A stretch of 64,000 nt of DNA, taken from positions 325,488 to 389,487 of the forward strand of contig DIZX01000015.1 of NCBI GenBank assembly GCA_002429485.1, written 5' to 3'. Below are positions 9,195 through 15,012 of the stretch, one piece after another. Position 1 is the stretch's first letter; the number at the start of each line of letters is the position of its first letter. The DNA comes from Patescibacteria group bacterium UBA6017. GTDB lineage: Bacteria > Patescibacteriota > Saccharimonadia > UBA4664. The position numbers were made by a program, and so were the translations under genes. The notes below the pieces were generated by a model. It was not told where the DNA came from. It made no database searches and saw nothing but the letters and a program-made list of their open reading frames with translations.

Positions 9195-10013
9195 ATGATT
9201 CTGCTCAAAAGATCCGGCTTGGCGATGGCGGCGATGCTAGCCCTGTTTGCTGCTGCACCGGCATTAGCCAGCCTGTCGCAAGGCTTTGCTACCAGCTCTC
9301 CCGTTGCTACGGGCAGTTTGGTGGCGCTCGACCAAAAATCTAGCGGCAGCGTGGCTGTTGCCGACCTCAATAATGCCGCCCGGCTCTTCGGTGTCGTCGT
9401 ACCGCCGTCATCTGCTTCGATATCGCTTTCGGGTACCGGTACCGGCCAGGTGCAGGTAGTAACCACCGGCAGCGCTCAGGTGCTCGTTTCCACCGCCGGC
9501 GGCGACATTCACGTGGGTGACTATATTTCGGTTTCTTCAGTTGCCGGAGTCGGCCAGAAGGTCGGGGCTTCGAGTACTCGCGTGGTCGGCACTGCACAGG
9601 CAGATTTCAACGGGTCGGGCGATGGCGCCACCAAGCGCACTATCGATGACGGCACGACCAAAAAAGAAGTCTCCATCGGTGAGATTCCGGTCGTGATATC
9701 GGTGTCTAGCTACACCGCTACCGACGGCCTGCAGTCGTACGTGGTGCCCAACTGGTTGCAGAATATGTCCAACACCCTCGCGGGTAAGGCCGTAGCGCCT
9801 ATCAGGATCATTGTGGCCGGACTTATTCTGGTCGTGGCCATGATAAGCATTTCAGTACTGCTCTACTCCGCTGTGCGCAATGGCATCATCTCAATCGGGC
9901 GCAATCCTCTGTCCAAAAACGGCGTTCTTCAGGGCGTGCTTACTGTCGGCGGGGTGGCCCTTGGTATCCTCGCCATTACTGCCGTAGCCATGTACTTGGT
10001 GATATCGAAATGA
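9195..10013 (+). CDS. secreted Gly/Ser/Thr/Val-rich protein with a C-terminal 2-TM hairpin resembling an F-ATPase c-subunit but lacking the carboxylate; first gene of the atp operon
   Basis: Signal peptide. C-terminal TM1, loop SIGRNP (compare ARQP), TM2 VLQGVLTVGGVALGILAITAVA (compare c-subunit [20 protein letters not shown]) with no D/E. Its stop overlaps the atpF ATG (ATGA). Confidence 0.55.
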   Translation: MILLKRSGLAMAAMLALFAAAPALASLSQGFATSSPVATGSLVALDQKSSGSVAVADLNNAARLFGVVVPPSSASISLSGTGTGQVQVVTTGSAQVLVSTAGGDIHVGDYISVSSVAGVGQKVGASSTRVVGTAQADFNGSGDGATKRTIDDGTTKKEVSIGEIPVVISVSSYTATDGLQSYVVPNWLQNMSNTLAGKAVAPIRIIVAGLILVVAMISISVLLYSAVRNGIISIGRNPLSKNGVLQGVLTVGGVALGILAITAVAMYLVISK

Positions 10014-10606
10014 ACCTGCAAGTACTCATGTTATCGGGTATTGTCGTAATGCTTCTGCTCGTGGTGGTGGTGCAGAGTTTTCAGCTGCGGCGCGGCGCCA
10101 AACAGCGAATCCAGGCATCGGCTGCACCCACTCCGGTGCGCGTCTCCGAGCCCACCGCCGTCGAGCTCGAGTCTAAGCTCAAGGCCGCCTATGAAGCCAA
10201 AATCGGCGAAGCCACCGTCACCTTCGGCACCGATCTCCAAGCCACCTCAACACGTTTGAGCGAGCAAGTGTCGCGCCTCACCACTACCGTTATCGAGGAG
10301 GAGCTGGAAGCCTACCAGAAGACCCTCGAAGAGGTTCGCCACGTCGCCATTCAGGCTATGGAGCAAATCCACCAGGCCGTTGAGCACCAGCGTGTCGAGC
10401 TGCGCGACGGCATGGAGGTAGAGCTGGCCGCCGAAAAGAAATTATTGGCCGACAAGTTCGACGCCAAGATGGGCGACGTTGTCTCTAGCTATATCTCGGA
10501 GTCACTCGGAAGCGGGGTCGATTTGGGCGCCCAGATGCAATTCATTCTCACCAGTCTCGAGGCCCACAAAGAAGAAATCCGAAAGGACCTTCTCAATGGC
10601 GTCTAA
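10010..10606 (+). CDS. atpF: F0F1 ATP synthase subunit b (peripheral stalk)
   Basis: N-terminal TM helix followed by a long charged coiled-coil. Sits immediately upstream of atpH-atpA. Confidence 0.65.
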   Translation: MNLQVLMLSGIVVMLLLVVVVQSFQLRRGAKQRIQASAAPTPVRVSEPTAVELESKLKAAYEAKIGEATVTFGTDLQATSTRLSEQVSRLTTTVIEEELEAYQKTLEEVRHVAIQAMEQIHQAVEHQRVELRDGMEVELAAEKKLLADKFDAKMGDVVSSYISESLGSGVDLGAQMQFILTSLEAHKEEIRKDLLNGV

Positions 10607-11081
10607 AGCTTTTCAGCTACCCCCGGCCGTCTATAGCCCCGCACTCGTCGAGTCGGTTATCTATGATATCCAGTTCTATCTGGATTGGGTCCGTCAAAAC
10701 CAAATTCGCAAAACCGTCGGCGCCAAAGTCAAAGAGGAGCCAACTCACTCTGCCGAAACGGTTATTGTGATCCAGACCTGGCTAGCCGGTAAACCTGCCA
10801 GCGTTGAATCGCTCGAGGCGCTTCTGCTTACCTTGCGCGGGCTCAAGCTTCCCGAGGTACACATCATGCTGGCCGCTCTGCCAAATCAGACCCAGCGCGA
10901 AGTGCTGGTGAACTGGTTTCGGACCAATGTCTCGCCTTCACTCCTGCTATCATTCGTGGCCGACCGCAACCTGGGCGGCGGGCTGGTAGTGCGGACGCCG
11001 AACCGAGTTTTTGACTACACCTGGAAGCAGCAGCTGATCGCCGGGCGAACCAAATTGGCGGAGATCTTAAAACGTGTTTGA
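10596..11081 (+). CDS. atpH: F0F1 ATP synthase subunit delta (OSCP)
   Basis: C-terminal delta signature ...DRNLGGGLVVRTPNRVFDYT (compare GGLIVRVGDKVIDGS). ATG 10596 is in frame with track ORF 10479. Confidence 0.75.
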   Translation: MASKAFQLPPAVYSPALVESVIYDIQFYLDWVRQNQIRKTVGAKVKEEPTHSAETVIVIQTWLAGKPASVESLEALLLTLRGLKLPEVHIMLAALPNQTQREVLVNWFRTNVSPSLLLSFVADRNLGGGLVVRTPNRVFDYTWKQQLIAGRTKLAEILKRV

Positions 11082-13427: not shown

Positions 13428-13438
13428 TCATAACTAGT

Positions 13439-14755
13439 ATGGCAGTAGCAGGATTCACCGGTCACATAGTTAGCATCCGAGGCCTCATTTTGGAGGTGGC
13501 TTTCCATGGTGAGGGTCGGCCCGCCTTGCGAGAAATCTTGACAATCGAGGGCCATCCCGAAATCCTGCTTGAGATTCAGTCATTCAATGAACATAGCGAC
13601 GCCCTCTGCATTACCTTTATGTCTAGCTCGCTCGTCTGTCGCGGCGCCAAGGTGGTTTCCACCGGTACCACCATCTCGGTCCCCACGGGCGCCAAAGCCC
13701 TCGGTCGGCTCTTCAACGCCGTAGGCATGGTAGCCGACAATCTCGAGCCCATTGGCGATGACGTTCCGCGCCGTAGCGTGTACACCAACGCCAGCTCTAC
13801 TCAGCTCTTCACCAACAACGATGAGCTGCTCGAAACCGGCATCAAGGTCATCGACTTCTTTACTCCCTTCGTGAAGGGCCGCAAGATCGGCATCATCGGG
13901 GGCGCCGGTGTCGGCAAGACGGTTCTGATTATGGAGCTCATCCACAACATCGGCAAAGATCCGACCAAGCTGGCCTTCTTCGCCGGTATTGGCGAACGCA
14001 TCCGTGAGGGCCACGAGCTCTACGAAACCCTCAAGGAACGCGACATGCTCAAGTCCACCGCCATGTTCTATGGCCAGATGAACGAAAACCCCGCCATGCG
14101 CGCCATGGTCGGAGTAGCCGCCACCACTTTGGCAGAGTATTTCCGCGACGAAGAAAAGCGCGACATCCTGTTTTTCGTAGATAACGTGTATCGCCACATC
14201 CAGGCCGGCAATGAGCTTTCCACCATGATGGGCCAGATCCCATCCGAAGGCGGTTACCAAGCCACCATTTTCTCCGACCTCAAGCGCCTCCAAGACCGAC
14301 TCTACTCCAATGCCAACGGCTCCATCACCGCCATTCAGACCATCTTCATCCCCGCCGACGACCTCACCGACCCCGCCGTGCAGGAAATCAGCTCCCAAAT
14401 CGACTCCGTCATCGTGCTGTCCCGTGCTGTCGCCGAGGCCGGCATCCGTCCCGCCGTGGACCTCATCCGCACCACCTCCTCGTTGCTCACGCCCGAGATC
14501 GTGGGGGAGCGGCACTATCTGCTTGTCACCCAGGTGCAGGCCATTATGCAAAAGTATGACTCGCTCAAAAACATCATTGCCATCATCGGTGAAAACGAAC
14601 TTTCGCCCCAGGACCGCGCCGATTACCGCAAAGCCAAGAAGCTCATCGAATTCTTTGCTCAGAGCATGTTCGTCACCGAGGCCCTCAACGGCATCCCCGG
14701 CGTCTATTTCACCCGCGAGCAGACCCTAAGCGGGGTAGAAGAGATCTTAATCTAG
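13439..14755 (+). CDS. atpD: F0F1 ATP synthase subunit beta
   Basis: Walker [19 protein letters not shown] and [14 protein letters not shown]...GYQ blocks. Confidence 0.95.
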
Positions 14756-15012
14756 TGGATAAGAACCAAAAACGCTTCAAAGTTAGGATCTTCAGCCCTT
14801 ACCAGACGTATTATCAGGGCGAAGCCGTCTCGGTGAGCGCCGCCAACCGCACCGGCCCATTCGATATTCTTCCCGGCCACATCAACTTTTTCTCGCTACT
14901 CACCGGCGGTACCGTCGTCGTAAACACCGGTTTTCAGCAGCTCGAATTTCAAATCGGCCGCGGCGTTGTGCGCGTCAACCGTGACGACGTCACGCTGTTT
15001 GCCGACGTTTAA
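14755..15012 (+). CDS. atpC: F0F1 ATP synthase subunit epsilon (N-terminal beta-sandwich only; C-terminal helical hairpin absent)
   Basis: DILPGHINFFSLLTGGTVVV matches the epsilon PGHAPL...L.PG block. Only 85 aa. Confidence 0.7.
   Translation: MDKNQKRFKVRIFSPYQTYYQGEAVSVSAANRTGPFDILPGHINFFSLLTGGTVVVNTGFQQLEFQIGRGVVRVNRDDVTLFADV

Follow-up and report, generated by a model that had tools for sequence, protein, structure and literature searches.

A conserved F1-like ATPase operon of Saccharimonadia with a 272-residue membrane protein at the place of subunits a and c

We analyzed a 64,000-nucleotide stretch of DNA (the window) from the Saccharimonadia genome Patescibacteria group bacterium UBA6017 (GenBank assembly GCA_002429485.1, contig DIZX01000015.1, positions 325,488 to 389,487 of the forward strand), and found in it a seven-gene operon (window positions 9195-15012, plus strand) that represents a real and conserved system which, as far as can be told, is undescribed. 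The operon opens with a gene for a 272-residue membrane protein, here called X272, and continues with genes for b-like, delta-like, alpha, gamma, beta and epsilon proteins. Judged by these sequences, it encodes a catalytically intact head of the alpha3beta3 type together with a shaft of gamma and epsilon, a cap that resembles delta, and a b-like stalk anchored in the membrane. On balance, we think that the product is probably a self-contained, ion-blind F1-like rotary ATPase, distinct from the proton-coupled F1Fo ATP synthase. Searches of the literature returned no description of such a system, and no paper linking F1-like ATPases with Saccharibacteria or the candidate phyla radiation (CPR) was found in the literature searched.

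Operon layout and the F1-like subunits

An earlier reading of the window, made from the sequence alone, had described a tightly and translationally coupled ATP synthase operon without genes for subunits a and c. The coupling was confirmed: all seven open reading frames (ORFs) lie where this sequence-only reading had placed them, and five of the six junctions overlap. The stop codon of X272 overlaps the start of the b-like gene in an ATGA, as had been claimed, and a second ATGA overlap joins alpha to gamma; b and delta overlap by 11 nt, delta and alpha by 8 nt, and beta and epsilon by 1 nt, and the remaining junction, between gamma and beta, is an 11-nt gap. A promoter-like site lies ~40 nt 5' of the X272 start and is followed by a purine-rich ribosome-binding region.

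The F1 models of Pfam and NCBIfam recognize alpha, gamma, beta and epsilon, yet all four score below the NCBI equivalog cut-offs (47 against a cut-off of 67 for epsilon; for the others, see the table). Alpha carries the Walker A motif GDNKTGKS, the arginine finger SVSRVG and a Pro/Ala-rich C-terminal tail, and its N-terminus is ~13 residues shorter than that of the model. Beta carries Walker B and PADDLTDP, has ENELSPQD in place of DELSEED and lacks ~28 C-terminal residues, and epsilon consists of the beta-sandwich domain only, without the C-terminal helices. Among orthologues, the beta motifs GGAGVGKT, GERxRE and Walker B were kept in 50 of 50 sequences and the arginine finger of alpha in 40 of 54, a conservation that suggests an active ATPase under selection. 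When compared with the PDB, the window beta was found to be equidistant from every canonical beta (~335-374 bits, ~45% identity), the beta of the M. mobile G1-ATPase scoring 280 bits. Bacterial, mitochondrial and chloroplast betas are typically ~65-70% identical to one another, and the window beta is a far weaker match to canonical betas than that.

The third protein of the operon gave a profile whose top 15 PDB matches were all OSCP/delta (best E=1.4e-4), and its single sequence matched Pfam OSCP weakly (E=0.006). Since its residues 34-158 align with OSCP residues 62-189, we read it as a delta subunit with a shortened N-terminal domain. The gene that had been called atpF fits this name in part: its position and its architecture, a transmembrane (TM) helix followed by a long helix, are those of subunit b, and a b-subunit signal is missing from its sequence. 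The b-like protein has a conserved C-terminal motif (DVVSSY..E.LG..VDLGAQ) and is present in every F1-linked locus; 2 of 11 members of its family match ATP-synt_B (E=0.024).

Scanning a single genome for each species gave 167 related loci, 80 of which were read. The order X272-b-delta-alpha-gamma-beta-epsilon recurred in 57 of these 80, each in a different species and with X272 identities of 33-90%, and therefore the arrangement is not due to chance. Locus L017, whose contig ends at the start of the b-like gene, would make 58. In some relatives the alpha/beta region was interrupted or lengthened (L020:11873-18163 of CP064960.1, and L012, L021 and L023): L020 has split alpha and beta matches, and in L007 and L023 gamma and beta are separated by an ORF of 171 residues on the minus strand, and beta has 484 residues.

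The absence of subunits a and c was borne out in the window, in the 10 kb past either end of it and in the 57 related loci. Within the window, the best phmmer match to subunit a had E=0.99 and no motif of the LSLRLFGN type was present; likewise, no ORF corresponds to a canonical c, the only hydrophobic-flanked R-[QN]-P loop being that of X272. No atp genes were found in the two 10-kb extensions, and neither a nor c was matched beside the operon in the 57 loci of other species (~1.4 Mb of flanking sequence); subunit a was missing from all 80 loci read. Moreover, no protein of the cluster carries an intramembrane carboxylate.

Among all loci there was a single a-like motif match, IRLYGN in a 238-residue ORF with four TM helices (L027:18320-19033). 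This motif precedes the TM helices, the gene lies ~3 kb downstream of epsilon and adjoins dsbA, and the ORF is probably unrelated to subunit a.

X272 and its C-terminal hairpin

The first cistron had been read as a signal peptide, an exported domain and a hairpin with the loop SIGRNP and no acidic residue. Both the sequence and an AlphaFold2 (AF2) model built from a 46-sequence alignment (pLDDT 87.8) agree with this description; in the model, an N-terminal helix is followed by a beta domain and, after a short amphipathic helix, by two long helices (35 and 34 residues) that a three-residue turn joins into a hairpin. Cleavage is predicted after ALA, between MILLKRSGLAMAAMLALFAAAPALA and SLSQG; the latter forms a conserved mature N-terminus, in which S28 and G30 are invariant and S26, L27 and Q29 nearly so. 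Because of the signal peptide and the positive-inside rule, the beta domain is placed outside the cell and the G-R-N-P loop in the cytoplasm, an arrangement shared with bacterial subunit c, whose N-terminus lies outside and whose loop lies inside.

X272 had no significant match in Pfam or NCBIfam, and its full-length profile had none in the PDB. In Foldseek searches, the beta domain matched capsid decoration or cement proteins of Pam3, BB1, HFTV1 and Sf11 in the PDB (E ~4e-4), and DUF2190, preneck appendage and fiber N-domains in BFVD (E to 9e-9, root-mean-square deviation (rmsd) ~3 A). A weak Pfam match of X272 to XM1_gp53 (E=0.0034) agrees with a decoration-like fold. As modeled, then, the domain has the fold of phage decoration or fiber-anchor proteins. 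Conservation, as read from alignments of 19 to 145 homologues, is highest in the stretch VLLY-AVRN-IISIGRNPLS, and the exported domain is conserved as well. The family is very large: 3238 cluster representatives (50% identity) are matched at E<=1e-3, and at E<=1e-30 the number is 454.

The claim that the hairpin is c-like found moderate support in structure and profile comparisons and none in the Pfam family. In a Foldseek search of the PDB, the top matches of the hairpin were all F-type c subunits, with that of Chloroflexus (9itt_H) at a TM-score of 0.83-0.85 and an rmsd of 1.5 A over 66-67 residues (~20% identity). When the hairpin profile was run with hmmsearch against 177,635 PDB sequences (E<=10), the sole match was subunit c of Chloroflexus aurantiacus (E=0.42), aligned in register; the loop of this protein reads IGRNPE (PDB 9itj/9itt). 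According to one report (PMC10656485), the F-ATPases of the CPR form the sister group of the Chloroflexi ones. The fragment of Chloroflexus c, when used as a query, retrieved Chloroflexi only and reached no Saccharimonadia c.

We then aligned profiles with hhalign, using shuffles that preserve the helix-loop-helix layout. An alignment of 145 hairpins scored 21.5 against nine c subunits, a value reached by 1 of 1000 shuffles; with 48 real Chloroflexi c sequences added, the score rose to 30.6 (probability 79.5%, 72 columns) and was reached by 0 of 1000. In the hmmsearch and hhalign alignments alike, G-R-N-P, which is invariant across the X272 family to ~31% identity, falls in register with the R-Q/N-P polar loop of subunit c. 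The polar loop of c contacts gamma and epsilon, and we infer that G-R-N-P has a similar role toward these two subunits.

The likeness to c thus comprises a hairpin of ~35 and 34 residues with a tight turn, termini on the outside and a conserved cytoplasmic R-N-P loop, whereas the Glu/Asp of helix 2, the GxGxGxG motif of helix 1 and a match to PF00137 are lacking. At the ion-binding position of helix 2, the window X272 has Leu and its relatives have Ala or another apolar residue; some relatives carry a non-conserved Glu six residues earlier, close to the membrane interface. Helix 1 lacks an enrichment in Gly.

Several results count against a c origin of the hairpin. Pfam ATP-synt_C (PF00137) matched 0 of 34 isolated hairpins at E<=10, giving scattered TM noise only, and going by these profile searches X272 is not a member of that family as defined. 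A c-subunit hidden Markov model (HMM) run against 13,793 ORFs from the window and the loci did not place X272 above noise, and mostly picked the Gly-rich P-loop of beta. When the loop was kept and the helices were shuffled, the mean hhalign score was 24.8 and 4 of 300 shuffles reached the real score, indicating that the loop dominates the signal and that the helices contribute a little beyond it. In addition, the nine c sequences of the first profile were entered by hand, and the stronger hhalign P-values are optimistic because the Chloroflexi sequences were chosen after the best PDB match. Taking these points together with the favorable comparisons, and with the position of the gene where a and c normally sit, we consider it fairly likely that the hairpin is derived from subunit c.

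An AtpI/AtpZ-like role was also considered for X272, as the first gene of the operon, and was rejected for want of a family match and because the loop motif differs.

A probable separate machine: known systems, proposed mechanism and rival explanations

Published gene counts bear on whether the operon stands alone. In one compilation (PMC12592800 Table S5, BlastKOALA), Saccharimonadia present three atp states: the canonical set only (TM7x, RAAC3); one copy each of atpB, atpF and atpE with two each of atpA, atpD and atpG (the complete genomes of Ca. Saccharimonas aalborgensis, GWC2_44_17 and Ca. Mycosynbacter amalyticus); and one copy each of atpA, atpD, atpG and atpC with a, b and c all missing (several CAILAD01 bins, among which one is 99% complete). 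The duplicated and the F1-only sets pass without comment in that paper. Such counts would fit a second set that lacks a and c and has an unrecognizable b, like the window operon. In Southlakia, the canonical operon is contiguous, running atpI-a-c-b-delta-alpha (SEML1_0349 onward). Given the divergence and equidistance of the F1 subunits and these published counts, we favor an F1-like ATPase that stands apart over an operon that supplies F1 to an ATP synthase split between loci. The label of an ATP synthase operon, given in the sequence-only reading, is therefore probably wrong. Canonical atpB and atpE may still lie elsewhere in the source genome, and would then probably come with their own alpha and beta. 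Of the two options that reading had offered, an unusual complex fits better, and an accessory or assembly subunit beside a and c genes located elsewhere fits less well.

The closest analogues of the window system appear to be the F1-like X0 ATPases of mycoplasmas, namely Type 2, the G1-ATPase of the M. mobile gliding motor (MMOB1610-1670), and Type 3, which is required for MIB-MIP antibody cleavage (MSC_0618-0624 / MMCAP2_0575-0581) (Beven 2012, PMC3369863; Berlureau 2026, PMC12994834). Shared features are a seven-gene cluster, probably here as well beside or instead of canonical F1Fo; subunits like alpha, beta, gamma and epsilon, in which the Walker motifs are intact, and the lack of a and c; a membrane protein bearing a signal peptide and, at its C-terminus, a pair of TM helices; and a setting in genome-reduced, host-dependent bacteria, with a proposed ATP-driven force that acts across the membrane on surface proteins. 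Unlike the mycoplasma clusters, which have a different gene order and no homologues of b or delta, the window operon keeps a delta-like protein and a b-like stalk in canonical order, and it has neither the 12-TM protein nor the small cytoplasmic protein of those clusters. X272 has 272 residues, whereas its mycoplasma counterparts are proteins of 85-127 kDa in which a c-type loop is unreported. Against the mycoplasma models NF045936/NF045934 and NF045863/NF045858, alpha scored 225 vs 520 and 312 vs 600, and beta 395 vs 570 and 335 vs 850. Because alpha and beta score higher against canonical atpA and atpD and stay below the mycoplasma cut-offs, an origin independent of mycoplasma X0 is suggested, and these scores place the window system outside that family.

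With the canonical F1Fo operon (atpIBEFHAGDC; Southlakia), the window operon shares the order b-delta-alpha-gamma-beta-epsilon, the F1 catalytic residues, the C-terminal domain of delta, the beta-sandwich of epsilon and an R-N-P hairpin protein 5' of b. It differs in lacking a, atpI and the ion-binding carboxylate, in having a 272-residue fusion with a secreted domain at the place of c, in the loss of the C-terminal helices of epsilon, and in the shortened N-terminal parts of delta and alpha. N-ATPases (atpDCQRBEFAG) are likewise second, divergent F-type sets that stand beside a canonical one in some genomes; they were rejected as an identity for the window operon, as they keep functional a and c and the AtpQ/AtpR order, and the scores against TIGR03305/03324 were 327 vs 750 and 411 vs 752.

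As for mechanism, we propose that X272 would oligomerize through its c-like hairpin into a ring, replacing the c-ring as the partner of gamma and epsilon. Such a ring would turn its invariant G-R-N-P loops toward gamma/epsilon on the cytoplasmic side and bear an outer crown of phage-decoration-like beta domains. A ring-like partner is implied by epsilon, which keeps only the beta-sandwich, the canonical c-ring-binding part. The complex would have a full rotor in gamma and epsilon and a full stator in alpha3beta3, delta and the b-like stalk. Because there is no proton path and no ionizable membrane residue, the machine would hydrolyze ATP and not synthesize it. Hydrolysis would set up a torque in gamma/epsilon, which the ion-blind ring would transmit to the cell surface, where the extracellular crown would be turned or twisted and surface proteins could be moved, loaded or reset. 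Surface fibers are suggested as the target by the fiber-anchor fold and by X272 paralogues that lie beside genes for giant surface proteins, and the giant fibrous proteins encoded there are the candidates. The system may be a rotary transmembrane "power take-off" that evolved from Fo in ultrasmall epibiotic bacteria, and a possible drive for giant fibrous surface proteins, which it could move, tension or reset during host attachment or gliding. It probably arose independently of mycoplasmas, when X272 took the place of a and c in an operon with the canonical F1Fo order. The specific proposal, in which X272 is a c-ring-derived, ion-blind rotor whose subunits carry external decoration-like domains, and in which the F1-like head torques an extracellular ring, is tentative, and we would put its chances at clearly less than even.

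Beyond the sequence results on the hairpin, other observations argue against a self-contained, X272-based rotary machine. Its b-like stalk would have no subunit a to brace against, and a profile of this 198-residue protein, searched against the PDB and Pfam for b-subunit homology, returned apolipoprotein and coiled-coil noise only. A search for a link between X272 and the duplicated F1 set of Ca. Saccharimonas aalborgensis, with X272 from a 'Ca. Saccharimonas sp.' MAG (metagenome-assembled genome) as the query, brought up no named S. aalborgensis protein in the top 120. About 20 loci have X272 paralogues without F1 genes, and therefore the family has a role that needs no adjacent F1 operon.

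These F1-less loci include L077:9890-18181 (CP025011.1), L038, L047, L050, L057, L059, L062, L065, L070 and L073. Their typical arrangement is parA-parB-lepB(-)-X272-like, followed by the gene of a Gly/Thr/Ser-rich surface protein of 2000-3300 residues, and the paralogue copies keep G-R-N-P. Twelve F1-less paralogues form a single clade nested among F1-linked X272 copies; F1-linked and F1-less loci occurring together in one genome were not seen among the 80. A possible counterpart exists in Southlakia epibionticum, where SEML1_0187, a 259-residue hypothetical protein without a Pfam match, was essential in transposon sequencing (Wang 2023, Tables S1/S2) and lies downstream of parA-parB-lepB(-) and an LCP gene (SEML1_0183-0187; Wang 2023). 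By its size and synteny, SEML1_0187 may be an X272-family member, in a species whose canonical F1Fo is dispensable.

The paralogue clade lends weight to another explanation, by which X272 is a co-transcribed envelope protein (a fiber anchor or docking platform), its likeness to c is convergent, and the F1-like head uses another partner or is membrane-tethered. In its favor, moreover, are the missing Pfam c match, the noise-level c-HMM score, a likeness dominated by a loop motif of 3-4 residues, and the fact that any long two-helix hairpin superposes on c subunits. We nonetheless regard it as unlikely. X272 shares a 4-nt start/stop overlap with the b-like gene and heads the operon in 57 deeply divergent species, at the exact place of a and c in canonical operons; its loop register, helix lengths and topology match those of c; the reduction of epsilon to its c-ring-binding beta-sandwich implies a ring-like partner; and no other candidate membrane subunit is present in all loci. 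The operon could, alternatively, provide the F1 and stalk of the only F1Fo of its host, with atpB and atpE elsewhere and X272 serving as an accessory or assembly factor at the place of atpI. The canonical order of the six genes from b to epsilon agrees with such a split synthase, as does the best model of beta, atpD (448 against a cut-off of 463, in a group whose proteins are generally divergent), and soil Saccharibacteria MAGs, including two X272-F1 genomes, have been reported to hold a 'nearly complete F-type ATPase'. We find it improbable, as genomes with a single a, b and c carry two sets of alpha, beta and gamma and a 99%-complete bin has F1 only (PMC12592800 Table S5), canonical Saccharibacterial operons are contiguous and none of the 57 loci has a or c nearby, all four F1 subunits lie below their equivalog cut-offs, and an assembly factor needs neither an invariant c-type polar loop nor an exported domain of 150 residues.

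It could also be thought that the operon is the decaying, functionless relic of an ATP synthase in a lineage that has lost chemiosmosis, since respiratory chains are often absent in Patescibacteria, ATP synthase is dispensable in Southlakia, and epsilon and beta are C-terminally shortened. However, all ORFs are intact and translationally coupled, the catalytic motifs are invariant in 50 orthologues, the whole cluster is kept across lineages at 33-90% identity without frequent frameshifts in relatives, and the motifs of X272 are invariant in its 3238 cluster representatives, all of which makes this explanation highly improbable.

If X272 indeed forms an ion-blind rotor derived from the c-ring, the mycoplasma X0 principle would have been invented twice, independently, and this would be the first case with a membrane element traceable to c. 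The transfer of force across the membrane is still to be explained in the mycoplasma F1-like X0 machines; the system proposed here is widespread, as judged by the number of X272 cluster representatives, and simpler, with a recognizable stalk and a c-like element, and it offers a concrete, testable structural hypothesis, that of an ion-blind ring with an external crown. There would also be consequences for annotation. An F-type ATPase recorded as 'present' or 'nearly complete' in Saccharimonadia may often denote the X272-linked complex, and ATP synthesis from a proton gradient, or the scavenging of a host gradient, could then be wrongly inferred for such genomes. Finally, the system ties an unannotated family of envelope proteins to the giant surface proteins of Saccharimonadia epibionts.

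Source, neighboring genes and feature coordinates

An identical 272-residue X272 is present on permafrost-soil contigs of the JGI (Joint Genome Institute) and in the NCBI MAG GCA_002413465.1, and the named homologues of X272 are all hypothetical proteins of 'Candidatus Saccharimonadia' or 'Patescibacteria'. Apart from the operon, the window holds housekeeping genes (FtsH, MurJ, Ddl, LepA, DnaK/DnaJ, ComEC, RuvAB, glycogen genes and a type IV pilus cluster), and no respiratory genes were found in its 64 kb.

Table. Features of the operon and its surroundings (positions in the window)
Feature	Position	Strand	Basis or remark
u185, TM helices at both ends	6903-7460	+	translationally coupled to u204; no family match
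u204, 4 TM helices	7457-8071	+	no family match
RRM RNA-binding protein gene	8164-8442	n.a.	upstream of the operon
m170, single-pass membrane protein with ~120-aa extracytoplasmic domain	8511-9023	-	no Pfam family
Promoter-like site TTGGCT-17-TATAAT	9125-9153	+	consensus scan, 10/12 matches; consensus match alone
X272, 272-aa membrane protein, first cistron	9195-10013	+	ORF; no Pfam or NCBIfam family
X272 signal peptide, aa 1-25	9195-9269	+	sequence; model helix 2-19; predicted cleavage
X272 extracytoplasmic beta domain, aa 27-173	9273-9713	+	Foldseek, weak Pfam
X272 C-terminal hairpin, aa 202-236 and 238-271	9798-10007	+	AF2; no Asp/Glu in either helix
X272 loop G235-R236-N237-P238 (within SIGRNP)	9897-9908	+	invariant in alignments A2 and A3
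b-like stalk protein, 198 aa	10010-10606	+	N-terminal TM helix, long helical region, position
delta/OSCP-like protein, 161 aa	10596-11081	+	profile vs PDB
F1 alpha-like, 498 aa	11074-12570	+	Pfam ATP-synt_ab E=1e-58; TIGR00962 390 bits, cut-off 484
F1 gamma-like, 286 aa	12567-13427	+	Pfam ATP-synt E=1e-31; TIGR01146 91 bits, cut-off 194
F1 beta-like catalytic subunit, 438 aa	13439-14755	+	ATP-synt_ab E=3e-65; TIGR01039 448 bits, cut-off 463
epsilon-like, 85 aa	14755-15012	+	Pfam ATP-synt_DE_N E=2e-13 over residues 8-84
Type IV pilus cluster (PilM, PilN, PilO, PilX_N-like, pilins)	59297-63993	-	continues in locus L089

Of the genes upstream of the operon, u185, u204 and the RRM gene were found together in 23 of the 80 related loci (L009-L088), and are missing outside that lineage. 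We considered u204 as a cryptic subunit a and rejected it, given that it has no family match and no Arg motif and is absent from most lineages. The m170 gene adjoins the cluster in 38 of ~57 F1-linked loci, in variable orientation, and is missing in other lineages. It lies within the operon in L060 (co-directional with b-delta-alpha) and in L064 (at the operon end), and in L049 it is the gene directly upstream, on the same strand; m170 may be an accessory component, the eighth in some lineages.

Two further observations concern other parts of the window. PilB- and PilC-like genes lie immediately beyond its edge, near the type IV pilus cluster. In addition, a 379-residue multi-TM ORF without a Pfam match (18687-19826, minus strand) is flanked by three tRNA-Met (CAT) genes that fall within 2 kb and on both strands, at 18185-18260 (minus), 19901-19976 (plus) and 20085-20159 (plus).

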